Assembly (NCBI GenBank): GCA_958296135.2
Contig: CATQHZ020000001.1
Span: forward strand, 192,001 to 256,000
Direction of reading: 5' to 3'
Source of the DNA: an uncultured Poribacteria bacterium
GTDB taxonomy: Bacteria; Poribacteria; WGA-4E; WGA-3G
Length of the DNA: 64,000 bases
Position 1 is the first letter of the stretch. The number at the start of each line of letters is the position of its first letter. Both the position numbers and the translations under genes were made by a program. The notes beneath the pieces were generated by a model, which worked only from the letters and a program-made list of their open reading frames with translations, was not told where the DNA came from and did not search any database. This document shows, piece after piece, positions 10,629-48,064 of the stretch.

Positions 10629-11106
10629 GCATGCATCTCCTTTTTGCCAATTTTAATGCCTATATGATATAATAACGTAACGGAATCCGAAAAGGCAAAC
10701 GAAAATGTGTCAGAAGCATGTAGTTTATCCCAGGGCTGGCGTTCGGGGCCGCAACCCGCCGATGTGAATCACATCGGGATTACGCACGCTCAGGCGAGCT
10801 GGGTTCCCTACAAAGGCAAAAATTTGAAAACTGAATCGCGCTGAAAATGTGTTGACTCGTTTGCACTTCCGGGCTATACTGAAGCAAGATAGGAAAAGAA
10901 ACCATGCCGATAAACGTGCTTTATGAAGTTTCAGTAATTAAGGGGCTCGGTGCAGTGGCGAGAACTCTATGAGAATCTAGCAGAACCTACCCTAATCTAT
11001 CTCCGATTTTTGCGCAGTGTCATTCGCAAAGCCGAATGACACATCTTCGGCATGCTTGGCTTTCGCAAGCATGCCTACGCAAAAATCGGCAGATGTGCAT
11101 TTTGAC

Positions 11107-11135
11107 TTGCAGTCGGCTTGGATTTGTGGTAGAAT
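11107..11135 (+). promoter_or_regulatory. Sigma70 promoter of the tnpB element
   Basis: TTGCAG-N17-TAGAAT with extended TG. Conserved as TTGCAT-N17-TATAAT in copy 2. Confidence 0.7.
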
Positions 11136-11138
11136 ATA

Positions 11139-11233
11139 GTTACCGTTGTGGGCGAGACATCCAAGCACGGCATCCCGCCGTGTCTCTCGCCCAACCTACC
11201 TTGGATGGAGGTTAACCAACGGCGAACGGTGAC
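11139..11233 (+). ncRNA. Conserved structured 5' leader RNA upstream of tnpB (unassigned family)
   Basis: Homologous to 47599-47693 (minus strand) with compensatory changes: CATCCAAG/CTTGGATG vs CTGCTAGG/TCTAGCAG, and AACCT/AGGTT vs CACCT/AGGTG. Confidence 0.7.
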
Positions 11234-11238
11234 GCTCT

Positions 11239-12483
11239 ATGACATTGAAAACGCATTTAATGGCGTTGGACCCGAATAATAAGCAGGCGACGCTGCTTGC
11301 AAAGCACTGCGGCTATGCCCGCGTGGCACGTAACCATGCGCTCTCGGAATTCAAGGCAGGACTCGACCGCGATGAATTCCTATCCGATATGGACTTGCGC
11401 AAACGGTTCAACGCCGTGAAAGATGAACGCTACCCGTGGTGCCGCGAGCTCAGTCAAAATGCATCGAAGAATGGGATTTGCAACCTCGGTGATGCAGTGA
11501 AACGCTGGATATCTAAACAAAACCGTTTCCCGCGCTATAAGAACCGATCTGGTAGGAGTTCCTACCAAGCTGACAACGGCGCAGGCACGGTAAAGGTGGA
11601 GAAAAAGCGTGTCAACCTTCCGAAGATAGGCTGGGTTCGGATGCGCGAGAAGTTGCGTTGGCGTGGCGAGATTCGGCGGTGTGTCGTCTCAAAACGTGCG
11701 GGCAGGTGGTTTCTATCGGTTCTCGTGAAGGTGGTTTCCGACAGTGCACCACGTGTGCGTTCTCCGCGCGGTCCTGTGCGTGTGGTTGGTGTCGATGTTG
11801 GCATCAAGACACTTGCTGTGACATCCGATGGTGTTGAGTTTGAAAACCCGAAGGCATTGTATCGATACCTGCGGAAGTTGCGGCGTGCGCAGCGTCAGCT
11901 CTCTCGTTCGGTTTACCGAAGCAGGAATTGGTATCGGAAGCAGGTGCGCGTGCAGCAGATTCACTATCGTATCTGCTGTCTGCGTGAGGATGCCCATCAC
12001 AAGGCAAGCACGGCGATTGTAAAGTCGGCTGACGTTCTCGGCATCGAGAGTCTTCGTGTGGCAGGCTTGTTGAAAAACCGCCGTCTTGCAAAGGCGTTGA
12101 GCGATGCGTCATTAAGTGGTTTCCTGACGATGCTTCGGTATAAGGCGGAGGCGCGTGGTGTTGAGATTATCGAAGCACCGTTGAACTTCCCGTCATCGAA
12201 GACGTGCAGTGCTTGCGGGAAGAAGAAGACGAAGTTGTCCCTCTCGGAGCGGACATATCACTGCGAGGCATGTGGCGCGGTCCTCGACCGCGACTTGAAT
12301 GCCGCGTATAATTTAAGAAACCTCGCCGCGAGCTTGACGGAGAGGGAAAACGGCTGCGGAGCGACTATAAGCCCTCATAGTAGGCACACCTCGTGTGTCT
12401 CGGAGGCACGCCGCATTGAAACAGCAACTACGACAGATAAGAGGACAGGTCAGCTTAGGATAGATTTGTCCAGAGGATCATAA
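11239..12483 (+). CDS. tnpB: RNA-guided endonuclease TnpB
   Basis: RuvC motifs GVDVG, IESL and DRDLNAA; Zn finger CSAC..CEAC; N-terminal HTH. Confidence 0.92.
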   Translation: MTLKTHLMALDPNNKQATLLAKHCGYARVARNHALSEFKAGLDRDEFLSDMDLRKRFNAVKDERYPWCRELSQNASKNGICNLGDAVKRWISKQNRFPRYKNRSGRSSYQADNGAGTVKVEKKRVNLPKIGWVRMREKLRWRGEIRRCVVSKRAGRWFLSVLVKVVSDSAPRVRSPRGPVRVVGVDVGIKTLAVTSDGVEFENPKALYRYLRKLRRAQRQLSRSVYRSRNWYRKQVRVQQIHYRICCLREDAHHKASTAIVKSADVLGIESLRVAGLLKNRRLAKALSDASLSGFLTMLRYKAEARGVEIIEAPLNFPSSKTCSACGKKKTKLSLSERTYHCEACGAVLDRDLNAAYNLRNLAASLTERENGCGATISPHSRHTSCVSEARRIETATTTDKRTGQLRIDLSRGS

Positions 12484-12623
12484 GTTCTAGGGAGCGGTTA
12501 TTTTCGCAACGCGCGCACGCTTGTGAGTGTAAGGGCGGATGTCTCTAACCGCCCGCCGGGAATGCCTTGTTCCTTTTCTGAATCTTCATTTAGCACTTAA
12601 TATCTATAGGGAAGGACTCCGAT

Positions 12624-25854: not shown

Positions 25855-25883
25855 TGTTTCTTCTCCTTAACCACCTCGTGGCC

Positions 25884-26555
25884 TGTAGCGCGAGGACCAA
25901 TCCCCCGCGAGTGCCGTTCTTCGTCCCGTAGCGCGAGGGCCCGGCGATCGCAAATCGCCGAGGGTTTCCCTCGCGATCCCCCGACCTGAGCGAAAACCGT
26001 CCGCATCCCCGCGGCCCCTGCCGTTTTCTGGTGCGATCGATGCCTGGCGAGGGACAGGCCCTCGCCCTACGGTATCAATGGCTTGTTCTGTTCCGTAGGG
26101 CGAGGGCCCGGCGATCGCGAATCGCCGAGGGTTTCCCTCGCGATCCCCCGACCTGAGCGAAAACCGTCCGCATCCCCGCGGCCCCTGCCGTTTTCTGTGA
26201 CGCTCGCTGCCTGGCGAGGGACAGTGGACATCTCTGCAGCGAGGCGGCAGAGATGACAACGTTTCGGCGTGACGGCCCTCGCCCTACGGTATCAATGGCT
26301 TGTTCTGTTCCAGAGCGCGAGGGCCCGGCGATCGCGAATCGCCGAGGGTTTCCCTCGCGATCCCCCGACCTGAGCGAAAACCGTCCGCATCCCCGAGGCC
26401 CCTGCCGTTTTCTGGTGCGATCGATGCATGGCGAGGGACAGTGGACATCTCTGCAGCGAGGCGGCAGAGATGACAACGTTTCGGCGTGACGGCCCTCGCC
26501 CTACGGTATCAATGGCTTGTTCTGTTCCAGAGCGCGAGGGCCTGTCCCTCGCAAT
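25884..26555. repeat. REPIN/BIME-like array (about three units of 170-220 bp)
   Basis: Repeated GTAGCGCGAGGGCC...TCCCTCGCGATC and inverted GGCGAGGGACAG...GCCCTCGCCCTAC with conserved linkers. Confidence 0.9.
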
Positions 26556-26687
26556 CCCTCCACCTGAATGGCGGTTAATGCTATTATACCTTAAATCGGC
26601 AGCATTTACCAAAAAAATCTTGACATTTTCGTCACACTTTGCTAAAATAGATTAGTTTAATAGCAAAAGGAGAAATTTTTAACCCGC

Positions 26688-28757
26688 ATGAAACAATACA
26701 GGACGGACCAGATCCGAAACATTGGCATCATCGCGCACTCCGGCGCGGGCAAGACATCCCTCGTTGAAGCGATGCTCTTCAACGGGGGAACCATTGAGCG
26801 CATGGGTGCCGTCGATAACGGAAATTCCGTTGCGGACTACGCCGACGACGAAATCGAACGCAAAACGACTCTCAACTGCTCCGTGTGTATCGCCGAGTGG
26901 GAAGGACAGAAACTCAATCTGATTGATACCCCCGGCGCAGCGGATTTTTACGGAGACCTGCACAGCGTCCTACGCATCGTCGATGCCGTCATCGTCGTCG
27001 TTGATGCAACAACCGGCGTTGAAGGCGGAACTGAAAAGGTCTGGGAGATAGCCGATAAGTATGAACTGCCACGGCTGATCTTTATCAATAAGATGGATAA
27101 AGAGAACGCCAGCTTTGAAAACGCACTCGCAAGCATCGAGGAGATTCTTGAGACACGGGCAGTCCCGATCCAACTGCCGATTGGGGAAGAGGCGCAGTTT
27201 TCGGGCATCGTTGACTTCGTGCAGATGGGCGCATTCCTGCAACCCGATAGCAGCAAGCGCACCGCCAAAACGGACATTCCAGAACCACTCGTAGCACCAG
27301 CCGAAGAAGCACGCGAAGCACTCGTGGAAGTCGCCGCCGAAAGCGACGACGCGCTAATCGAAAAGTTTTTTGAAGGCGAACTCTCCGACGAAGAAATTCA
27401 GACCGGCCTAAAAATAGGAATTTTCGAGAACCAGTTTGTCCCCGTACTCTGCGGCTCCGCCTTGGAGAATATCGGCGTGCAGCAAGTCATGGATATGCTG
27501 ATTAACTGCCTCCCGTCGCCCGTGGATGCCGGCGCAGTTGAAGGCATTGCTGATTCCGAAACGCGCGAACCCTCCACCGATGAACCGATGGCAGCCTTGG
27601 TGTTCAAAACCATCGCAGACCCGTTCGCGGGGCAATTGAGCTTCTTCCGCGTCTACTCCGGCACATTGCACGGAGATTCCCAAGTCAGCAATTCAACACG
27701 GGAACAGATAGAACGCCTCGGCAAGACAACGTTCATGAACGGGAATAGCCCGATTAACACGGCGCACGTCCAAGCAGGCGATATCGGCGCACTGACGAAA
27801 CTCTCTGTCACCCAAACCGGCGATACACTCTGTGATAGAGATGCACCGATTCAGCTACCCGGTGTTGAGTTCCCGCCATCGGTTATCTCTTACGCCATCC
27901 GGCCGACACGCGATGGCGAAGATGAAAAAATGATCAGCGCGCTCACCCGCATGTCCGAAGAAGACCCGGTTTTCAGAATCGAACGCGACGAAGAAACGAA
28001 GCAACTCCGCATCTCCGGACTCGGGGACCTGCACCTCACCGTCAACCGCGCACGGATGACTGATAAGTTCGGCGTGCAAACAGAGCTCTCGCCACCGAAA
28101 GTACCGTATCGCGAGACAATTCGCCGAAGCGTCCGGAACATCAACGGCAGACATAAACGGCAGTCTGGTGGTAGAGGGCAATTCGGCGATGTCTGGATTA
28201 ACCTCGCACCGGCTCAGCGCGGCGAAGGATTTGAATTTATCAATAACATTGTCGGCGGCTCCATTCCGCGCAACTATATCCCCGCGGTTGAGAAGGGCAT
28301 CCGTGAAAGAATGGAGCGAGGACTTGTCGCCGGGTATCCCGTGGTAGATCTCCAGATCGACCTTTACGATGGCAAGCATCACCCGGTGGACTCATCAGAT
28401 ATGGCGTTCCAGATCGCTGGTTCTATCGCCTTTGCGGAGGCAGCGGAACAGTCAGACCCGGCATTGCTGGAGCCGATCATGAACGTCACGATTACGGTGC
28501 CGGAGCAATTTATGGGGAGCATCATCGGCGACTTGAACGGCCGGCGTGGGCAGGTGATGGGAGTGGAGCAAATAGGCAAGCGGCAGGTAATCCAGGCGCA
28601 TGTACCGTTAGCGGAGATGCTTCGTTACTCGATCGACCTGAAATCGATGACGAGTGCGCGTGGCAGTTTCACGATGGAATTCGCGCGTTATGAAATCGCG
28701 CCGGATGATGTGGCGCAGAAAGTGATTACTGCTTCAAAGGCTGAAGCGGAGGAGTAA
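26688..28757 (+). CDS. fusA: Elongation factor G paralog (EF-G II-like)
   Basis: IRNIGIIAHSGAGKTS, DTPG, NKMD, GLGDLHL, QSGGRGQFG, VDSSDMAF. Divergent G1/G2 motifs suggest the second EF-G. Confidence 0.88.
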   Translation: MKQYRTDQIRNIGIIAHSGAGKTSLVEAMLFNGGTIERMGAVDNGNSVADYADDEIERKTTLNCSVCIAEWEGQKLNLIDTPGAADFYGDLHSVLRIVDAVIVVVDATTGVEGGTEKVWEIADKYELPRLIFINKMDKENASFENALASIEEILETRAVPIQLPIGEEAQFSGIVDFVQMGAFLQPDSSKRTAKTDIPEPLVAPAEEAREALVEVAAESDDALIEKFFEGELSDEEIQTGLKIGIFENQFVPVLCGSALENIGVQQVMDMLINCLPSPVDAGAVEGIADSETREPSTDEPMAALVFKTIADPFAGQLSFFRVYSGTLHGDSQVSNSTREQIERLGKTTFMNGNSPINTAHVQAGDIGALTKLSVTQTGDTLCDRDAPIQLPGVEFPPSVISYAIRPTRDGEDEKMISALTRMSEEDPVFRIERDEETKQLRISGLGDLHLTVNRARMTDKFGVQTELSPPKVPYRETIRRSVRNINGRHKRQSGGRGQFGDVWINLAPAQRGEGFEFINNIVGGSIPRNYIPAVEKGIRERMERGLVAGYPVVDLQIDLYDGKHHPVDSSDMAFQIAGSIAFAEAAEQSDPALLEPIMNVTITVPEQFMGSIIGDLNGRRGQVMGVEQIGKRQVIQAHVPLAEMLRYSIDLKSMTSARGSFTMEFARYEIAPDDVAQKVITASKAEAEE

Positions 28758-28774
28758 GTGATTTAGCGGAACGT

Positions 28775-29420
28775 CGCGCGGGGGCCCGGCGAGCGCGAAT
28801 CGCCGAGGGTTCCCCCCGCGATCCCCCGACCTGCCCGGAAACCGCCACTTATTACGTAGCGCGAGGGCCGTTACGCCGAAACGTTGTCATCTCTGCAGTC
28901 CCGCTGCAGAGATGTCCACTGTCCCTCGCGATCTCCCGACCTGAACGAAAAACGCCCGCAACCCAGAGGCCACGAACGCTTTCTAGTGCGATCGATGCAC
29001 GGCGAGGCACAGGACCTCGCCCTACGGTTTGAGCGGCACTTTTAGTCCCCGTAGCGCGACGGAAAACCTGTCCCTCGCGATCTCCCGACCTGAACGAAAA
29101 ACGCCTGCAGCCCAGCGGCCGCGGACGCTTTCTGATGCGATCGCTGCACGGCGAGGGCCTGTCCCCCGCGATCGCCTCTCACTACCGTAGCGCGAGGGCC
29201 TGTCCCTCGCGATCTCTCGACCTACGCGAAAACCGTCCGCAGCTCAGAGGCCCCGGACGGTTTTTCTTTAGACCGATGCCTGGCGAGGCACAGGACCTCG
29301 CCCTACGGGCTGCGGGGCCGCTTTGCTTCCGCTCATCGAAACGGAAAACGCCTGCAGCCCAGCGGCCGCGAACGTTTTTTGATGCGATCGAGCCTGGCGA
29401 GGCACAAGACCTCGCCCTAC
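28775..29420. repeat. REPIN/BIME-like array
   Basis: Same REP arms and linkers as 25884-26555. Confidence 0.88.
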
Positions 29421-29438
29421 GGTAACAGTGGCGTTTTC

Positions 29439-31985
29439 CTACTTCCGAATTACCAGCTTCCGCGTCGCCGAGAAATCTCCGGCCTGCAGCGTGTAGAAAT
29501 ACACGCCACTCGCAACCGGCTCTCCCTGTGCATTGCGGCCATCCCAATACGCGGCGCGGGACTTGCCCGAATATACGCCCGCCGGAACTTGGCCCAACTC
29601 CAAGGTGCGTACCAGTTTCCCATCCGATGCGTGAATCCTGACGGTGACCTCCGCAGCCTTTGCCAACTGATACGGTATCCACGTTTCCGGGTTAAACGGA
29701 TTCGGATAGTTGGCAAGCAGCGCGGTTTGTTTCGGCGTTAGACTTGCGAGGAGCTGCTGCAGCACGGCAATGCCGCGCCGATACACAGGGTTTGCGCTGT
29801 CCAGCCGTTGCGCCTGCGCGAGCCACTGTTGCACATCCGCCGCCCGTAGGAGAGACCTCCCGGTCTCGATTTCCCCTTGTAGGAGAGCCCTCCCTGTCTC
29901 GATGCTCCTCCCTGTCCCGATATGCCACCGCGCGAACCCCGGCGCGCCCGCTGCCTCCCCAAACGCCGCTGCCACCAACACCAAATCCTGAATGTTGACA
30001 ACGCCATCACCGTTGACATCAGCGGGATTATCTTCACTTGTCTGTCCGAACTGCGCGGCGACAAGCGTTAAGTCCAGAATGTCCACCACGCCATCGCCGT
30101 TGATATCTGCGGCGACTTGCACCGGTGTGGGTGCAGACGGTGCGATGTCCCAGAGGAGCACCGTGCCGTCCCAACTGCCAGTGGCGAGTGTGTTTCCATC
30201 GGGGCTGAACGCAACGCTCTCGACATCGTCCGTATGTCCGGTGAGTGTGTTTAGTGTGTCGCCGGTGACCACATCCCACAGACGGATGGTTTTGTCATAA
30301 CTCGCACTTGCGAGTGTGTTTCCATCTGGGCTGAACGCAACGCTCTCGACACCGTCCGTATGGCCGGCGAGTGTGTTTAGTGTGTCGCCGGTGACCACAT
30401 CCCACAGACGGATTTCTGCATAACTGCCACTTGCGAGTGTGTTTCCATCTGGGCTGAACGCAACGCTATAGACATACCAGGTATGGCCGGTGAGTGTTTG
30501 GCGTGTGTCGCCGGTGGCGACATCCCACAGCCGGATGGTGTAGTCCCAACTCGCACTTGCGAGAGTGTTTCCATCCGGGCTGAACGCAACGCTATTGACA
30601 CTAGAGGTATGGCCGGTGAGTGTGTTTAGTGTGTCGCCGGTGACGACATCCCACAGACGGACGGTGCTCCCACTCCCACTTGCGAGCGTGTTTCCATCCG
30701 GGCTGAACGCAACGCTATTGACACTAGAGGTATGGCCGGTGAGTGTTTGGCGTGTGTCGCCGGTGGCGACATCCCACAGACGGACGGTTCTGTCATAACT
30801 CGCACTTGCGAGTGTGTTTCCATCTGGGCTGAACGCAACGCTAACGACATCCCAGGTATGTCCGGCGAGTGTGTTTAGTGTGTCGCCGGTGGCCACATCC
30901 CACAGCCGGACGGTGTCGTCATAACTCGCACTTGCGAGTGTGTTTCCATCCGGGCTGAACGCAACGCTATAGACACCGCTCGTATGGCCGGTGAGTGTGT
31001 TTAGTGTGTCGCCGGTGGCGACATCCCACAGACGGACGGTGTCGTCCCAACTGCCACTTGCGAGCGTGTTTCCATCGGGGCTGAACGCAACGCTTCTGAC
31101 CCAGTCCGTATGTCCGGTGAGTGTGTTTAGTGTCTCGCCGGTGGCGACATCCCACAGCCGGACGGTGTCGTCCCCACTCGCACTTGCGAGCGTGTTTCCA
31201 TCAGGGCTGAACGCAACGCTATAGACATTGTCCGTATGGCCGGTGAGTGTGTTTAGTGTGTCGCCGGTGACCACATCCCACAGACGGACGGTGTCGTCCC
31301 CACTCGCACTTGCGAGTGTGTTTCCATCCGGGCTGAACGCAACGCTATAGACACCGCTCGTATGGCCGGTGAGTGTGTTTAGTGTGTCGCCGGTGGCGAC
31401 ATCCCACAGACGGACGGAGCCGTCCCAACTGCCACTTGCGAGCGTGTTTCCATCGGGGCTGAACGCAACGCTTCTGACCCAGTCCGTATGGCCGGTGAGT
31501 GTGTTTAGTGTGTCGCCGGTGACCACATCCCACAGACGGACGGTGTCGTCCCAACTGCCACTTGCGAGTGTGTTTCCATCCGGGCTGAACGCAACGCTCC
31601 TGACATTGCCCGTATGTCCGGTGAGTGTGTTTAGTGTCTCGCCGGTGGCGACATCCCACAGACGGACGGTGTCGTCCCAACTGCCACTTGCGAGTGTGTT
31701 TCCATCGGGACTGAACGCAACGCTAATGACAGAGCCCGTATGGCCGGTGAGCAGTGCTACTTCTTGGTAAGTTGCGGTATCGTAGAGCCAAATCCCGATG
31801 GAACTTGCAACCGCTAGCAGGGTGCCATCGGGAGAATACACAATCTCGTTGATCCAGCCTTTGCCGAGGCGTAAGGTTGCACCTTCGGGTAAGTGCCACT
31901 GTGGAGAATCTTGGGCGGTGGCGGGTGTCAGTGCCAAGGTGGCGGTTAATAGCAGGGTTAAGGTTAAAAGCGTTAATGTTTTCAT
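29439..31985 (-). CDS. Secreted WD40-repeat protein with dockerin-like and C-terminal FlgD-Ig/T9SS-like domain (paralog 1)
   Basis: Signal peptide, 13 near-identical GHT..V.SVAFSPDGNTLAS..WD repeats plus one degenerate repeat, DINGDGVVDILD/DVNGDGVVNIQD, NYPNPFNP...SGVYFY. Confidence 0.92.
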   Translation of the reverse strand: MKTLTLLTLTLLLTATLALTPATAQDSPQWHLPEGATLRLGKGWINEIVYSPDGTLLAVASSIGIWLYDTATYQEVALLTGHTGSVISVAFSPDGNTLASGSWDDTVRLWDVATGETLNTLTGHTGNVRSVAFSPDGNTLASGSWDDTVRLWDVVTGDTLNTLTGHTDWVRSVAFSPDGNTLASGSWDGSVRLWDVATGDTLNTLTGHTSGVYSVAFSPDGNTLASASGDDTVRLWDVVTGDTLNTLTGHTDNVYSVAFSPDGNTLASASGDDTVRLWDVATGETLNTLTGHTDWVRSVAFSPDGNTLASGSWDDTVRLWDVATGDTLNTLTGHTSGVYSVAFSPDGNTLASASYDDTVRLWDVATGDTLNTLAGHTWDVVSVAFSPDGNTLASASYDRTVRLWDVATGDTRQTLTGHTSSVNSVAFSPDGNTLASGSGSTVRLWDVVTGDTLNTLTGHTSSVNSVAFSPDGNTLASASWDYTIRLWDVATGDTRQTLTGHTWYVYSVAFSPDGNTLASGSYAEIRLWDVVTGDTLNTLAGHTDGVESVAFSPDGNTLASASYDKTIRLWDVVTGDTLNTLTGHTDDVESVAFSPDGNTLATGSWDGTVLLWDIAPSAPTPVQVAADINGDGVVDILDLTLVAAQFGQTSEDNPADVNGDGVVNIQDLVLVAAAFGEAAGAPGFARWHIGTGRSIETGRALLQGEIETGRSLLRAADVQQWLAQAQRLDSANPVYRRGIAVLQQLLASLTPKQTALLANYPNPFNPETWIPYQLAKAAEVTVRIHASDGKLVRTLELGQVPAGVYSGKSRAAYWDGRNAQGEPVASGVYFYTLQAGDFSATRKLVIRK

Positions 31986-32149
31986 TGGATTTCTCCTTTT
32001 GGGTATCGGGACCAGATGTCCCTCTTACTGAGTTGTGGGCGGGCTGGTGTGCCTGCCCGTGTGTTGCGTCTCATCTTGGACAGATTGTAGCAGCTGCCGC
32101 GTTTTTTTTGTCAACGTATTTTTGAGAACAATCGAAAACCGCCGCTTTC

Positions 32150-32560
32150 ACCGTAGGGCGAGGGAAAACCCGGCGCGCGCGAATCGGCGCGGGTTCCCCC
32201 CGCGAACGCCCGACCTGCCCGGAAAACGCCTGCAGCCCCGCGGCCGCGAAGGCTTTCTGATGCGACCGATGCCTGGCGAGGGACAGGCCCTCGCCCTACG
32301 GGCTGCGGGGCGATTTGCCTCTCACTACCGTAGCGCGAGGGCCGTCACGCCGAAACGCTATCATCTCTGCAGCCTCGCTGCAGAGATGTCCACTGTCCCT
32401 CGCGATCCCTCAACGAAACGGAAACCGTCCCTTTCACCGTAGCGCGGTGGCCTGTCCGCCGCGATCCCTCGACCTGAACGAAAAACGCCCGCAACCCTGA
32501 GGCCGCGGACGCTTTCTGATGCGATCGATGCATGGCGAGGCACAGGACCTCGCCCTACGG
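32150..32560. repeat. REPIN/BIME-like array between the WD40 paralogs
   Basis: Same REP family as the other arrays. Confidence 0.85.
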
Positions 32561-32576
32561 TAACAGTGGCGTTTTC

Positions 32577-35123
32577 CTACTTCCGTATCACCATCTTTCG
32601 CGTCGCCGAGAAATCACCCGCGGACAGCGTGTAGAAATACACGCCACTCGCAACCGGCTCTCCCTGCGCATTGCGGCCATCCCAATACGCGGCGCGGGAC
32701 TTGCCCGAATATACGCCAGCCGGAACTTGGCCCACCTCCAAGGTGCGTACCAGTTTCCCATCCGATGCGTGAATCCTGACGGTGACCTCTGCGGCCTGTG
32801 CCAATGCATACGGTATCCACGTTTCCGGGTTGAACGGATTCGGATAGTTGGCAAGCAATGCGGTTTGTTTCGGCGTTAGACTTGCGAGGAGCTGCTGCAG
32901 CACGGCAATGCCGCGTTGATACGCAGGGTTTGCGAGATCTAGCCGTTGCGCCTGCGCGAGCCACTGTTGCACATCCGCCGCCCGTAGGAGAGACCTCCCG
33001 GTCTCGATTTCCCCTTGTAGGAGAGCCCTCCCTGTCTCGATGCTCCCTGTCCCGATATGCCCCTGCGCGAACCCCGGCGCGCCAGCTGCCTCCCCAAAGG
33101 CCCCCGCCACCAACACCAGATCCTGAATGTTGACAACGCCATCGCCGTTGACATCGGCCGGATTGTCTGCACTTGTCTGTCCGAACTGCGCGGCGACAAG
33201 CGTTAAGTCCAGAATGTCCACCACGCCATCGCCGTTGATATCTGCGGCGATTTGCACCGGTGTGGGTGCAGACGGTGCAATGTCCCAGAGGAGCACGGTG
33301 CCATCATCACTGCTACTGGCGAGTGTGTTTCCATCGGGGCTGAACGCAACGCTCCAGACATAGTGCGTATGTCCGGTGAGTGTGTTTAGTGTGTCGCCGG
33401 TGACCACATCCCACAGCCGGACGGTGTCGTCCTCACTCGCACTGGCGAGCGTGTTTCCATCGGGGCTGAACGCAACGCTAAAGACATTGTCCGTATGTCC
33501 GGTGAGTGTGTTTAGTGTGTCGCCGGTGACGACATCCCACAGACGGACGGTGCTCCCACTCCCACTTGCGAGCGTGTTTCCATCTGGGCTGAACGCAACG
33601 CTATTGACACTAGAGGTATGTCCGGTGAGTGTTTGGCGTGTGTCGCCGGTGGCGACATCCCACAGACGGACGGTGGTGTCCCTACTCGCACTTGCGAGTG
33701 TGTTTCCATCCGGGCTGAACGCAACGCTCCTGACATTGCCCGTATGTCCGGTGAGTGTTTGGCGTGTATTGCCGGTGGCGATATCCCACAGACGGAGGGT
33801 TTCGTCCGAACTCGCACTGGCGAGCGTGTGTCCATCAGGGCTGAACGCAACGCTCCTGACACCGCCCGTATGGCCGGTGAGTGTGTTTAGTGTGTCGCCG
33901 GTGGCCACATCCCACAGCCGGACGGTGTCGTCCCAACTGCCACTTGCGAGTGTGTTTCCATCTGGGCTGAACGCAACGCTCCAGACATAGTGCGTATGGC
34001 CGGTGAGTGTGTTTAGTGTGTCGCCGGTGGCGACATCCCACAGCCGGACGGTGTTGTCCTCACTCCCATCACTTGCGAGTGTGTTTCCATCCGGGCTGAA
34101 CGCAACGCTCCAGACCCAGCGCGTATGGCCGGTGAGTGTTTGGCGTGTTTCACCGGTGGCCACATCCCACAGCCGGACGGTGGTGTCAAAACTCCTACTT
34201 GCGAGTGTGTTTCCATCGGGGCTGAACGCAACGCTAATGACATTGTCCGTATGGCCGGTGAGTGTTTGGCGTGTCTCGCCGGTGACCACATCCCACAGCC
34301 GGACGGTGTAGTCCGCACTCGCACTTGCGAGTGTGTTTCCATCCGGGCTGAACGCAACGCTATAGACATTCAAGGTATGTCCGGTGAGTGTGTTTAGTGT
34401 GTCGCCGGTGGCGACATCCCACAGACGGACGGTGGTGTCCCTACTCGCACTTGCGAGTGTGTTTCCATCCGGGCTGAACGCAACGCTATAGACCCAGTGC
34501 GTATGTCCGGTGAGTGTTTGGCGTGTATCGCCGGTGGCGACATCCCACAGACGGATGGTTTCGTCCCAACTGCCACTTGCGAGTGTGTTTCCATCGGGAC
34601 TGAACGCAACGCTAGAGACCACCCAGGTATGTCCGGCGAGTGTGTTTAGTGTGTCGCCGGTGGCCACATCCCACAGCCGGACGGTGTCAAAACTCCCACT
34701 TGCGAGCGTGTTTCCATCCGGGCTGAACGCAACGCTAATGACATTGTCCGTATGGCCGGTGAGTGTTTGGCGTGTGTCGCCGGTGGCGACATCCCACAGC
34801 CGGACGGTGTTGTCATCACTCGCACTTGCGAGCGTGTTTCCATCCGGGCTGAACGCAACGCTCAAGACAACGCCCGTATGCCCAGTGAGCAGTGCCACTT
34901 CTTGGTAAGTTGCGGTATCGTAGAGCCAAATCCCGATGGAACTCGCAACCGCTAGCAGGGTGCCATCGGGAGAATACGCAATCTCGCGGATGCGGCCTTT
35001 GCCGAGGCGTAAGGTGGCCCCTTCGGGTAAGTGCCACTGTGGAGAATCTTGGGCGGTGGCGGGTGTCAGTGCCATCGCGGCGGTTAATAGCAGGGTTAAG
35101 GTTAAAAGCGTTAATGTTTTCAT
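32577..35123 (-). CDS. Secreted WD40-repeat protein with dockerin-like and FlgD-Ig/T9SS-like domain (paralog 2)
   Basis: Same architecture and length (848 aa) as 29439..31985. Confidence 0.92.
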   Translation of the reverse strand: MKTLTLLTLTLLLTAAMALTPATAQDSPQWHLPEGATLRLGKGRIREIAYSPDGTLLAVASSIGIWLYDTATYQEVALLTGHTGVVLSVAFSPDGNTLASASDDNTVRLWDVATGDTRQTLTGHTDNVISVAFSPDGNTLASGSFDTVRLWDVATGDTLNTLAGHTWVVSSVAFSPDGNTLASGSWDETIRLWDVATGDTRQTLTGHTHWVYSVAFSPDGNTLASASRDTTVRLWDVATGDTLNTLTGHTLNVYSVAFSPDGNTLASASADYTVRLWDVVTGETRQTLTGHTDNVISVAFSPDGNTLASRSFDTTVRLWDVATGETRQTLTGHTRWVWSVAFSPDGNTLASDGSEDNTVRLWDVATGDTLNTLTGHTHYVWSVAFSPDGNTLASGSWDDTVRLWDVATGDTLNTLTGHTGGVRSVAFSPDGHTLASASSDETLRLWDIATGNTRQTLTGHTGNVRSVAFSPDGNTLASASRDTTVRLWDVATGDTRQTLTGHTSSVNSVAFSPDGNTLASGSGSTVRLWDVVTGDTLNTLTGHTDNVFSVAFSPDGNTLASASEDDTVRLWDVVTGDTLNTLTGHTHYVWSVAFSPDGNTLASSSDDGTVLLWDIAPSAPTPVQIAADINGDGVVDILDLTLVAAQFGQTSADNPADVNGDGVVNIQDLVLVAGAFGEAAGAPGFAQGHIGTGSIETGRALLQGEIETGRSLLRAADVQQWLAQAQRLDLANPAYQRGIAVLQQLLASLTPKQTALLANYPNPFNPETWIPYALAQAAEVTVRIHASDGKLVRTLEVGQVPAGVYSGKSRAAYWDGRNAQGEPVASGVYFYTLSAGDFSATRKMVIRK

Positions 35124-35287
35124 TGGATTTCTCCTTTTGGGTATCGGGACCAGATGTCCCTCTTACTGAGTTGTGGGCGGGCTGGTGTGCCTGCCCGTGT
35201 GTTGCGTCTCATCTTGGACAGATTGTAGCAGCTGCCGCGTTTTTTTGTCAACGTATTTTTGAGAACAATCGAGAACCGCCGCTTTCA

Positions 35288-35795
35288 CCGTGGGGCGAGG
35301 GGAAACCCGGCGCGCGCGAATCGCCGAGGGTTCCCCCCGCGAACGCCCGACCTGCCCGGAAACCGCTTACAACCCCGCGGCCGCGAAGGCTTTCTGATGC
35401 GATCGAGCCTGGCGAGGCACAGGACCTCGCCCTACGGTTTGAGCGGCATTTTTAGTCCCCGTAGCGCGAGGGCCGTTACGCCGAAACGTTGTCCTCTCTG
35501 CCGCCTCGCTGCAGAGATGTCCACTGTCCCTCGCGATCCCTCGACCTGAACGAAAAACGCCCGCAGCCCAGCGGCCGCGAACGTTTTTTGATGCGATCGC
35601 TGCACGGCGAGGCACAAGACCTCGCCCTACGGTTTGAGCGGCATTTTTAGTCCCCGTAGCGCGAGGGCCTGTCCCTCGCGATCCTCCGACCTGACTGGAA
35701 AACGGCCTTTTCACCGTAGCGCGAGGGAAAACCCGGCGATCGCGAATCGCCGAGGGTTCCCCCCGCGAACGCCCGACCGGCACGAAAAACGTCCG
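35288..35795. repeat. REPIN/BIME-like array
   Basis: Same REP family as the other arrays. Confidence 0.85.
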
Positions 35796-35858
35796 AAGCC
35801 CAAGACTCTTGAACGTAGTTGTTCAGGGCTAAGTCACGGTGCTCGGCCCTGAAATTAC

Positions 35859-41216: not shown

Positions 41217-41227
41217 TTTTTCACTAA

Positions 41228-41445
41228 GCGGCCCCGCAGCCCGTAGTGCGCGGTCCTGTGCCGCGCCATATCTTCACGGTTCCCGTAGAGCGCGGTCCTG
41301 TGCCGCGCCATATCTTCACGGTTCCCGTAGGGCGCGGTCCTGTGCCGCGCCATGCCACAAGCGGCCCCGCAGCCCGTAGTGCGCGGTCCTGTGCCGCGCC
41401 ATATCTTCACGGTTCCCGTAGGGCGCGGTCCTGTGCCGCGCCATG
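41228..41445. repeat. Tandem REP array (five GTAG.GCGCGGTCCTGTGCCGCGCCAT copies)
   Basis: About 41-bp units with repeated linkers. Confidence 0.85.
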
Positions 41446-41727
41446 CCTGCTGACGTGAGGAAAGCTATGCAATTTCAAGACATCGCGAACACCTATTGGC
41501 GAAACATTCAGCAAACCCGACGCGAAGCTGAGGCAACCACAGAACTCTCTTTGCATACGCATCTCAAGACGTTTTTGGAACAAGCCGCGGCGCACTTAGG
41601 AGCACTATCGGAGCATGTTGGTTGCAATCGCAGAGACGCTCAGCATCATGGCAAAATTGGATACGGCTTGCTAGGGCCCGACCGGTCGCGAACGGACAAA
41701 GAAGAGGCACTGCCCGGAAGGGCTCTC

Positions 41728-46263: not shown

Positions 46264-46380
46264 TCTAATGTTACCTCCTGTTCGCGCTTATTTCTCAGGA
46301 CGATTCAGTTTTCAAATGTGCGCCAGTTCTTGCCGCACTACATAACCTATGAGAATCTCGTCAAATGTAGACTTATCTGC

Positions 46381-47595
46381 CTATGCAAAGTCTACGAGTC
46401 TCTGTTCGGTCAGCGGTTTCCTGCTTCTTCCGCGCACACGCGGGTTCTGATGCCAGCCTACCAAAGTAGGTGTTACAGCATCTCCACAGGCGTTTTGGCT
46501 CTCCTCAGTGCTTGAGGCGAGCTGTCGAAGGTTTATAGCGGCGTTAACGTCTCTGTCCTCTACCAATCCGCAGATACCGCAGTGATATTCTCTGTCCTTG
46601 AGCGTCAGTTTGAATTCGCCACGTTTGACGTAGCCACAGGAACTGCATCGCTGTGTTGACGGCCAGAACTTATCTGCCGACACAATGCGGATGCCGCGCC
46701 ACACCGCCTTGTATTTGAGTTTGACGAGGAAGCCGCCAAGACTTGCATCGGCGAGTGCCTTGCTCAGCTTGCGGTTCTTCATCAAACCTTTCACGGTGAG
46801 GCTTTCAATGCCAAGTGCCGAGATGCCTTGCAGGATGCGATGTGTCACCTGATGATGGGCATCGGTTCTCACATTGGCGATACGGGCATGCAGGCGGGCG
46901 AGGCGTTCCTTCGCCTTCCACCAGTTTTTGCTCATGAACGTCTTGCGGGCGAGTGCCTTATTTGCACGGCGTAGTTTGCGTTCATTGACACGCAAGGCAC
47001 GCGGATTTTCGTAGACAGTGCCATCGTCCATCGTAGCGAGGGCAGAGATGCCGACATCACAACCTGCAGGGGGCAGTGCTGACGTGTCGGGCGGTTCCGG
47101 TTCATTAACTTCGACAAGGATGCTGAGATACCATCGATGTGCGATTCGCTTAACGAAAGCACGGCGAACTTCACCTGTCCATCGAGGGTTTTCATGCAAC
47201 CTAACCTGTCCAATTATCGGAAGGACGACGTGTTTACCGTCCGCCGTCATTTTGACAGTATTGACACCATTATCAATCTGGAACGCAGGGGCAGACTTAT
47301 GCGTCTTCCGTTTGGGCGCACCATTCTGTCCCGATTTGTATCTGGCGATAGCATCACCGAAAGCGTGGATAGCAGTCTTGCCTGCGTTTTGAGAACACGC
47401 GGCGAATTCGGGGAACACCTCGCGCTTCCGTGAGTTGAAGATTTTCTTCAAATCGTAGAGAGAGTTACGGCGGTCGGCGTTCCAATCAGAATGTGCGGCA
47501 TTATATGCAACACGGGCGAAATCCACGTGACGACAGAACATCGCAACTTGTTCCTCGCTAGGGTTGAGTGCTATCTTCTGGGCTCGTAGTGCCAT
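46381..47595 (-). CDS. tnpB: RNA-guided endonuclease TnpB
   Basis: GCDVG, IESL and DRDVNAA RuvC motifs; CSSC..CGIC Zn finger. ATG 47595 is at the same position as the copy 1 start. Confidence 0.92.
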   Translation of the reverse strand: MALRAQKIALNPSEEQVAMFCRHVDFARVAYNAAHSDWNADRRNSLYDLKKIFNSRKREVFPEFAACSQNAGKTAIHAFGDAIARYKSGQNGAPKRKTHKSAPAFQIDNGVNTVKMTADGKHVVLPIIGQVRLHENPRWTGEVRRAFVKRIAHRWYLSILVEVNEPEPPDTSALPPAGCDVGISALATMDDGTVYENPRALRVNERKLRRANKALARKTFMSKNWWKAKERLARLHARIANVRTDAHHQVTHRILQGISALGIESLTVKGLMKNRKLSKALADASLGGFLVKLKYKAVWRGIRIVSADKFWPSTQRCSSCGYVKRGEFKLTLKDREYHCGICGLVEDRDVNAAINLRQLASSTEESQNACGDAVTPTLVGWHQNPRVRGRSRKPLTEQRLVDFA

Positions 47596-47598
47596 AGA

Positions 47599-47693
47599 GT
47601 CACCGTTCCCGTTGGGTGTCACCTGCTGCTAGATAGGTGGGGCGAGAGACACGGCGGGAAGCCGCGCCTAGCAGTCTCGCCCCCAACGGTAAC
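47599..47693 (-). ncRNA. Conserved structured 5' leader RNA upstream of tnpB (copy 2)
   Basis: Homologous to 11139-11233 with compensatory substitutions. Starts just after TTGCAT-N17-TATAAT. Confidence 0.7.
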
Positions 47694-48064
47694 TATATTA
47701 TACCACAAAATCAAGCGGAATGCAAGTCAAAATGCACACTGTTAGATTAGGGCAGATACTCCTAGTATCTCATAGAGTTATCGTCACTGCACCGAGCCCT
47801 ATTGAACGTGCCCGATGCCGATACGATGACAGTTGAGCGAACTGAATCGTTCTGGGCTTATCTATAGAAAATCTGCCAACAACATTTCAATACGTCTATG
47901 ATAACAAATTTTCAGAAATATGTCAAGAGAAAAAAACGAAAAAAGTTGACAGCAAATCGATTTCTGTCTATAATAAATGATAAAGGCATGATACGAGAAG
48001 TTCCAAGTTTTAAAAGGAGCAGATTTGCCGTATTTTCAGGAAAGGACACACGCTTAACAGGGAT

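Follow-up and report, generated by a model that had tools for sequence, protein, structure and literature searches.

A pseudoknotted leader ahead of a Poribacteria tnpB gene belongs to a phylum-restricted RNA family and may act as a translational switch

The stretch of DNA analyzed here is a window of 64,000 nucleotides (C1:192001-256000) in the 5.19 Mb genome of an uncultured Poribacteria bacterium. On its minus strand, the window carries a TnpB-only insertion sequence (IS) of about 1.47 kb (46333..47800), hereafter copy B, delimited by the points where homology with 10 other B-type copies (84.7-93.8% identity) begins and ends. This element contains the tnpB coding sequence (CDS; 46381..47595, minus strand), which encodes a protein of 404 aa matching Pfam OrfB_IS605 (8.9e-25) and Cas12f1-like TNB (2.1e-18), and no second open reading frame (ORF). 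The ATG of tnpB (47595-47593) lies directly 3' of a structured leader of 98 nt (47596..47693, minus strand). Upstream of the leader is a promoter (47697..47725, minus strand), composed of a -35 box TTGCAT (47725-47720), a 17-nt spacer and an extended -10 box TGgTATAAT (47705-47697, with TATAAT at 47702-47697 and TG at 47705-47704). An earlier note on this DNA had quoted the minus-strand sequence and the promoter spacing; both proved exact, and the coordinates were verified. The promoter was missing from the list returned by a promoter scanner, its -35 box TTGCAT having only 3 of 6 positions in common with the consensus TTGACA; its -10 box is perfect as well as extended, and it is kept across the 21 copies of this left end in the genome. 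Judging from its sequence, we take the region to be the promoter of tnpB together with the folded 5' leader of its mRNA. The leader is a member of a Poribacteria-restricted family of pseudoknotted leaders of about 100 nt, placed between a sigma-70-type promoter and a start codon.

The elements of the fold follow one another in the same order in all instances: P0 5' strand, H1 5' strand, H3 5' strand, H2 hairpin, H1 3' strand, H5 5' strand, H3 3' strand and H5 3' strand. The 3' part of the leader always consists of a distal repeat, a proximal repeat and 3-9 nt before the start codon. In copy B, all on the minus strand, the P0 5' strand GTTACCGTT (47685..47693) corresponds to the predicted 5' end of the transcript. 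In the RNAalifold consensus it pairs with the proximal repeat AACGGTGAC (47599..47607), which occupies positions -12 to -4 from the ATG; other copies have G.U-compatible variants of this strand. The distal repeat CCCAACGG (47609..47616) pairs instead with CCGTTGGG (47689-47682), giving an alternative closing helix of 8 bp, P0'. The earlier note had described this alternative helix, which is indeed present; as the 3' strand is duplicated in tandem, the fold can close in two conserved ways, of which this is one. Inside the closing helix, the H1 5' strand GGGGCGAGA (47675..47683) pairs with TCTCGCCCC (47647-47639), and the H2 hairpin GCGCGGC-TTCCC-GCCGTGT occupies 47649..47667. The internal loop of H1/H2 contains the H3 5' strand CTGCTAG (47668..47674), which forms a pseudoknot with CTAGCAG (47626..47632) in the loop of the H5 hairpin CACCT ... 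AGGTG (47620..47639).

This fold was assessed on 103 distinct homologues of the leader. Over the whole model, 86.6% of the cells are paired, against 69.1% after shuffling, and none of 500 shuffles reached 86.6%. The covariation score is 0.426, compared with 0.04-0.07 when the partners are slid, and two-sided changes occur in 33 of the 36 pairs. P0 (helix 1) is 89.9% paired, with two-sided change at 9/9 pairs; H1 (helix 2) is 98.7% paired; H2 (helix 4) is 95.1% paired, with two-sided change at 7/7 pairs and 7 bp with its own partner vs 4 bp in the swap test. H3 crosses H1, and the model was not fitted to it. Its pairing is nevertheless partner-specific: the median is 8 bp with the own partner and 4 bp with a swapped one, and at least 6 bp are reached in 91% vs 23%. 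By manual count, H3 occurs as 31 distinct strand pairs of at least 8 bp, in 83 of the homologues. The junction is near-invariant (G.U in 98/103, bulged C, A-U in 102/103, C-G) and includes a conserved UCUG. Wobble pairs favor the sense strand, with 256 G.U vs 54 A.C. For copy B, the sense strand folds at -49.3 kcal/mol (z = -3.25) and the antisense strand at -43.6 kcal/mol (z = -1.84). Together with the promoter adjacency described below, the pairing, the covariation, the H3 swap test and the wobble asymmetry strongly support the proposal of the earlier note that selection acts on structure at the RNA level.

Both tandem copies of the 3' strand covary with the 5' strand of the closing helix: CCAGTT, for instance, is matched by two copies of AACTGG, TATCGCGT by two of ACGCGATA, TCACGG by two of CCGTGA and CCGTT by two of AACGG. 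At least seven distinct types of 5' strand were observed, each matching both repeats. In 94 of the 103 homologues, P0 and P0' are both available with at least 5 bp. Under a nested energy model, applied to 104 sequences, the difference between the two closings has a mean of 0.08 kcal/mol (sd 1.95, median 0 kcal/mol). A preference of more than 0.5 kcal/mol was found for P0 in 36 sequences and for P0' in 41, the remaining 27 lying within 0.5 kcal/mol, and each conformer forms in 90/104 once the other is blocked. The two conformers of copy B are predicted at -48.2 (P0) and -46.9 (P0') kcal/mol.

A sigma-70-like promoter scoring at least 9/12 lies directly upstream of the leader in 57/103 instances, compared with 3/103 control windows. 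In 48 of these 57 promoter-bearing instances the -10 box ends 7-8 nt ahead of the first base of the helix, and the promoter sequences differ between the classes of downstream gene. As the promoter adjoins the first helix, the fold should begin at the 5' end of the transcript. At the other end, the start codon is at a fixed distance from the leader in most instances. No terminator-like site was detected in the leader, which makes transcription attenuation unlikely, and control by an intrinsic terminator was dropped on this ground. Two other candidates were also rejected: CsrA-type GGA sites, as the repeats of the TnpB class lack GGA, and integron attC sites, as the core sites do not fit and every instance is equipped with a promoter of its own.

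A second element of the window, copy A, is of the A type and lies on the plus strand (10942..12497; left-end block 10942-10999, leader 11139-11238, CDS 11239-12483). Its TnpB is 414 aa long and its right end reads ...GGGAGCGG, at 12497. BLAST of the copy B element against the window matched it at 10943-10999 plus 11094-11244 (plus strand). The two copies are 86% identical in the terminal block, 82% in the promoter and 79% (global) or 83% (BLAST) in the leader, compared with 57.7% in tnpB DNA and 45% in protein. Thus, the leader is better conserved than the coding sequence, as the earlier note had stated. Its further statement, that most of the differences fall in paired positions, did not hold: differences affect 13/72 paired columns (18%), 9/23 unpaired ones (39%) and 4/8 in the duplicated strand, so that paired positions are not enriched. 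The second copy had also been presented as the compensatory evidence. The changes between the copies are compensatory in H3 (CTGCTAG/CTAGCAG in copy B, CATCCAAG/CTTGGATG in copy A), in H5 (CACCT/AGGTG and AACCT/AGGTT, respectively) and in H2, but two copies alone are weak evidence. The decisive structural support comes instead from the 21 genomic copies and about 100 distant homologues. Copy A also contains, between its left-end block and its promoter, a palindromic insert of 94 nt (11000-11093, plus strand; fold -50.5 kcal/mol). This insert is a repeat element in its own right, with 25 genomic BLAST matches at 71-100% identity. Three IS copies contain the insert, with 100% identity among them, and an IS therefore still multiplied with the insert in place.

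In the host genome, the 211-nt left end is present in 21 copies, all located ahead of tnpB, 11 of the B type and 10 of the A type. Their leaders fall into three types (8, 4 and 9 copies) in which H1 and H3 differ by paired changes; in type-3 copies H1 is compensated as GGAGGTGAGA/TCTCACCTCC and H3 reads CCTACTAAG/CTTAGTAGG. One further B-type tnpB copy (C1:3726568-3727840, 86% identity) lacks the left end and the leader, the match starting at the start codon; it is probably a 5'-truncated element. A second contig of the assembly, C2 (143,886 bases), has a G+C content of 36.8% vs 54.4% for the main contig; it could represent either contamination introduced by binning or a replicon of foreign origin.

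The leader lies within this conserved left end, which is common to two TnpB subfamilies, and among the 21 copies the combinations of leader type and TnpB type are shuffled. Such an arrangement would also be produced by a single-stranded DNA structure recognized by a transposase at the left end, or by homogenization of IS copies through recombination in the absence of structural selection. We regard this DNA-level explanation as barely credible. The leader is positioned 108-205 nt inside the end of the element, past the promoter, whereas the left-end subterminal hairpins of IS200/IS605 elements lie at the terminus and are confined to IS ends; chromosomal genes outside any IS, whose promoters and ends are unrelated, have it upstream too, and in other TnpB elements it stands behind unlike end hairpins. 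The hairpin version of this explanation fails for these reasons. Moreover, the helices are kept in homologues too diverged for BLAST, and no canonical small Y1 TnpA was found in the host genome (serine recombinases were not searched), in which the only two Y1_Tnp matches are weak and lie in frames of 274 and 226 aa. Elements with unlike ends were seen in other Poribacteria at L041, L045, L047, L049 and L051, where TnpB elements have the same leader behind different left ends with CCCAA...TTGGG hairpins upstream of the promoters. Hairpins of this type are typical of IS200/IS605 ends. Since the same leader stands behind unlike left ends, it has been acquired by two or more kinds of TnpB element.

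The left end was undetectable by BLAST in 24 other genomes of the host family. BLAST with the left end was uninformative in 40 relatives, and covariance models were needed. The first (R1) was built from the 21 host leaders and the second (R2) from the sequences found with R1; the copy B leader matches both over the full model length, with 119.4 bits for R1 and 90.9 bits for R2. R1 gave full-length matches of 28-54 bits in 28/99 other family genomes, and 51 genomes from eight further families gave no match. These matches precede several divergent TnpB lineages, small proteins and one DNA methyltransferase. R2 matched 91/111 other genomes of the family (92/112 with the host), with 814 matches in all including the 21 host copies, and up to 32 per genome. 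In a phylum-level sample, R2 matched 81/99 genomes of the host family and 7/26 of a second family, and 0/25 genomes of seven other families. A strict core pattern was found in 43 stretches among genomes of 185,579 species, 41 of them Candidatus or uncultured Poribacteria and 2 labeled 'uncultured bacterium', and had no match in viral contigs.

The genes downstream of the leader were listed in a census of 104 matches in 100 loci. Small signal-peptide proteins account for 59/104 and TnpB for 24/104. Another 7/104 belong to restriction-modification, namely five N6/N4 methyltransferases (one of them HNH-fused), one D12 methyltransferase and one BglII-type endonuclease; the rest are 8 unnamed singletons and 6 instances with no ORF of at least 30 aa. 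The 'TnpB leader' of the earlier note is therefore too narrow a name, the same family also preceding non-transposon genes. The small protein is 109-139 aa long; it begins with a signal peptide, contains a coiled coil and has a membrane segment at its C terminus. It gave no Pfam match above the cut-off, and its best score against the ESM Atlas (0.87) is only a lead. Its relatives in the host genome are distant and lack the leader motif. The small-protein family is multicopy and partly tandem, with an own leader for each gene; at one locus two motif copies (L098:251-353 and L098:886-988) are separated by 635 nt, and downstream of each is a separate gene for a small signal-peptide protein.

The association with tnpB in the host, where 21/21 copies precede this gene, and the presence of the leader in at least four further TnpB lineages elsewhere might suggest a binding site, linked to TnpB or its guide RNA, through which the tnpB mRNA would be autoregulated. 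This is very improbable, as 80 of the 104 sampled instances are not ahead of TnpB. In addition, TnpB guide scaffolds are found at the 3' end according to excerpts of PMC11061315, and a conserved 3' end is present in the elements described here.

The leader starts at the predicted transcription start, ends at the start codon, contains four covarying helices and can be closed in two ways of equal energy. Cis-acting translational control is therefore the best reading, and we favor, with moderate confidence, a model in which the leader is a bistable switch. In this model, the 5' end of the transcript would pair either with the segment that immediately precedes the AUG (at -12 to -4 in copy B), forming P0, or with the adjacent tandem copy (P0'). 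The stem H1-H2 has an internal loop of 7-8 nt, pairing downstream as the H3 pseudoknot inside the loop of the weaker H5. P0 would bury the ribosome landing zone, whereas P0' would stack on the pseudoknotted core and leave the landing zone free. The conserved core would be the place where a ligand, a protein or the kinetics of folding biases the equilibrium between P0 and P0'. TnpB synthesis of the IS would then be controlled in common with the genes of the host that belong to this regulon.

Several points weigh against this model. The homologues are related, so that the shuffle statistics overstate their independence, and the energy model leaves the pseudoknot out. H5 is weak, with 52% of its cells paired in a fixed register and 5 bp vs 4 bp in the swap test. 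On fixed columns, P0' is 73.0% paired vs 65.3% after shuffling, and a slide of -1 does equally well on covariation. The fixed-register values of H5 and the modest fixed-column score of P0' are low because the registers slip and drift; alignment-free partner-swap tests were used in their place for both helices. Most members have no obvious Shine-Dalgarno sequence, so that the target that P0 would occlude is a matter of inference. The census is biased to top scores and includes only 4/21 host copies, and the downstream genes have no evident physiology in common from which an effector could be deduced.

The lack of an evident Shine-Dalgarno sequence in most members would also fit a constitutive, non-switching 5' module, which would protect the mRNA from 5'-end-dependent decay or serve as a ribosome standby site or enhancer, the duplicated strand providing robustness only. 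The fold begins at the predicted 5' end of the transcript and precedes unrelated genes, as such a module could. The host leader is found only with tnpB and the distant small-protein relatives are without it, and it would thus work without the context of a dedicated regulon. This alternative still appears rather unlikely to us: a protective hairpin needs neither a covarying pseudoknot and an invariant junction, nor two near-isoenergetic closings that covary three ways.

A more ambitious form of the switch model is held only tentatively. It proposes a new, Poribacteria-confined, riboswitch-like sensor, the core of which would bind a metabolite, a second messenger, an ion or a protein and flip the P0/P0' toggle. 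This sensor would coordinate TnpB, restriction-modification and small envelope proteins, and would be a host module captured by mobile elements. As in riboswitches, there is a conserved structured domain with covariation; the genes found in the 104-instance census do not form one coherent pathway, as those of a riboswitch would. If the translational switch is correct, tnpB would have a structured and apparently regulated 5' leader, known TnpB RNA biology being that of the 3' guide RNA. Independently of the switch, the fold defines an abundant RNA family, outside Rfam 15, in an uncultured phylum of sponge symbionts. One leader links transposon nucleases, restriction-modification genes and small envelope proteins, suggesting that mobile and defence functions are controlled jointly, which can be tested in vitro with no need to culture the organism. 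A tandem closing strand with two registers of equal energy would also be a simple and unusual design for a switch.

Rfam 15 (4227 models) gave no match over the whole window at the gathering threshold, nothing on the leader at E<=10 over both elements, and nothing on the motif at E<=1 over 13 foreign loci. These results also bear on whether the leader is a processing element, either a self-cleaving ribozyme, which would release the start region by removing the 5' strand, or a stable trans-acting RNA of about 100 nt. The helices follow one another as H1a-H3a-H2-H1b-H3b, like those of the nested pseudoknots of HDV-like ribozymes. In the latter, a nested double pseudoknot includes a short P3 and a P1.1-forming L3, and the catalytic C is located in J4/2; HDV-like ribozymes occur in the 5' untranslated regions of retrotransposons, and bacterial ribozymes are often close to mobile and defence genes. 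We consider this explanation improbable, as no Rfam ribozyme matched even at E<=10, and H2 is a hairpin of 5-7 bp with variable, often GNRA-like loops, unlike a short P3 with a P1.1-forming L3. Furthermore, no terminator is available for the release of a small RNA, and the position of the leader is fixed relative to the start codon.

The carrier element itself has features of an IS200/IS605-IS607 TnpB element: OrfB_IS605 (RuvC) and zinc-ribbon/TNB domains, several copies and defined ends. Its protein contains GCDVGIS, GIESL and DRDVNAA, in which D/E/D are present and which we take to be the catalytic motifs. Upstream of the promoter, the terminal left-end block AGGGCTCGGTGCAGTG... (47743..47800, minus strand) is kept in 21/21 copies and is presumed to be a recombination site. 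The right end (46333..46490, minus strand), presumed to contain the scaffold of the guide RNA, is kept up to ...GTTATGTAGTGCGG in 11 copies. The flanks of the copies diverge just before (A/G)GGGCTCGG and just after ...GTAGTGCGG. In public contigs, the depth changes 10-50-fold in the bins 46292-46355 and 47764-47827, and the flanks of other copies diverge at 47800/47801. No empty insertion site was found in four public contig runs of unknown kind, which contained only repeat-type depth steps and end points. One contig joint (47134 to 47294), with a side of 20, is unreliable. In copy B (minus strand), CTATGAGA in the left-end block (47768-47775) and TCTCATAG close to the right end (46347-46354) are reverse complements of each other; this type of end match is weaker in A-type elements. 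About 100 nt outside the left end, a strong promoter-like site pointing into the element (TTGACA-17-TATCAT, 11/12, with TG; 47898-47926, minus strand) was noticed. In read-through transcripts from this site, the leader would be preceded by additional 5' sequence.

Near the element, Rfam revealed similarity to RAGATH-18 only; the match lies at the 3' end of tnpB (46418-46490, minus strand) and remains below the Rfam threshold (17.3 bits, E = 7.3, vs a gathering score of 44.9). TnpBs of the IS607 type have guide RNAs derived from RAGATH-18, and AG-rich target-adjacent motifs (TAMs) adjoin the left end of their elements, according to the excerpts of PMC11061315. In the elements studied here, the base preceding GGGCTC is A or G in 20/21 copies, which is only suggestive of an AG-rich TAM. 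The RAGATH-18-like match, the GG at both ends and the A/G before the left end are hints of an IS607-type TnpB.

Elsewhere in the window, GC-rich hairpin repeat families (CCGTAGCGCGAGGGCC...) are dense at 25880-35830 and 41226-41450. Two paralogous ORFs of 848 aa (29439-31985 and 32577-35123, minus strand) are made of tandem units of 126 nt. HIP1-like GCGATCGC repeats are also present and had suggested a cyanobacterium; phycobilisome genes were looked for and none was found, and this origin was rejected.

A pseudoknotted tnpB leader and a Poribacteria RNA motif were looked for in the literature. No paper on either was found, the search for the former returning, as judged from listings, only unrelated papers. 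A motif named 'Poribacteria-1' is reported in the supplement of Weinberg et al. 2017. That the leader family is this orphan candidate is possible rather than probable. The word is absent from the main text of PMC5737381, and RF03025 (RT-4), RF03018 (RT-15), RF03010 (mcrA) and RF03014 (Transposase-1) are none of them 'Poribacteria-1'.

Compared with known systems, the leader shares with IS605-orfB-I (RF03065) and the other motifs of Weinberg 2017 the status of an orphan structured-RNA candidate obtained by comparative genomics, some of these motifs being near IS605 orfB. RF03065 is included in Rfam 15, as stated in an excerpt of PMC11701678. Neither this model nor the riboswitch and ribozyme models of Rfam matched the leader. 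TnpB guide RNAs (omegaRNA, and the RAGATH-18-derived reRNA of IS607 TnpB) are likewise structured RNAs within the same element. Their scaffolds are located downstream of tnpB or overlap its 3' end, abutting the right end (excerpts of PMC11061315). In contrast, the leader described here is 5' of the gene and is also found in the absence of tnpB. c-di-GMP-I riboswitches resemble it in being multicopy ahead of mixed genes, with a conserved junction and a candidate expression platform. Unlike them, the leader has no Rfam riboswitch match and no indicated ligand, and its genes are mobile, defence-type or encode small membrane proteins. The E. coli operators rpsO/S15 and alpha-operon/S4 are bistable at the start site, one conformer being a pseudoknot that an effector can stabilize, in which they are like the leader; the leader differs from them in having no ribosomal-protein context and in being multicopy (up to 32 matches per genome). 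Finally, in the stem-loop of the IS200 tnpA 5' untranslated region and in the fold-back inhibition of IS10, the 5' leader of an IS also pairs with the region upstream of a start codon, and plausibly limits translation of the IS-encoded gene. These leaders are single stems, each of a single IS, whereas the leader described here is a pseudoknotted RNA of about 100 nt with two closings, common to non-IS genes and conserved across two bacterial families.

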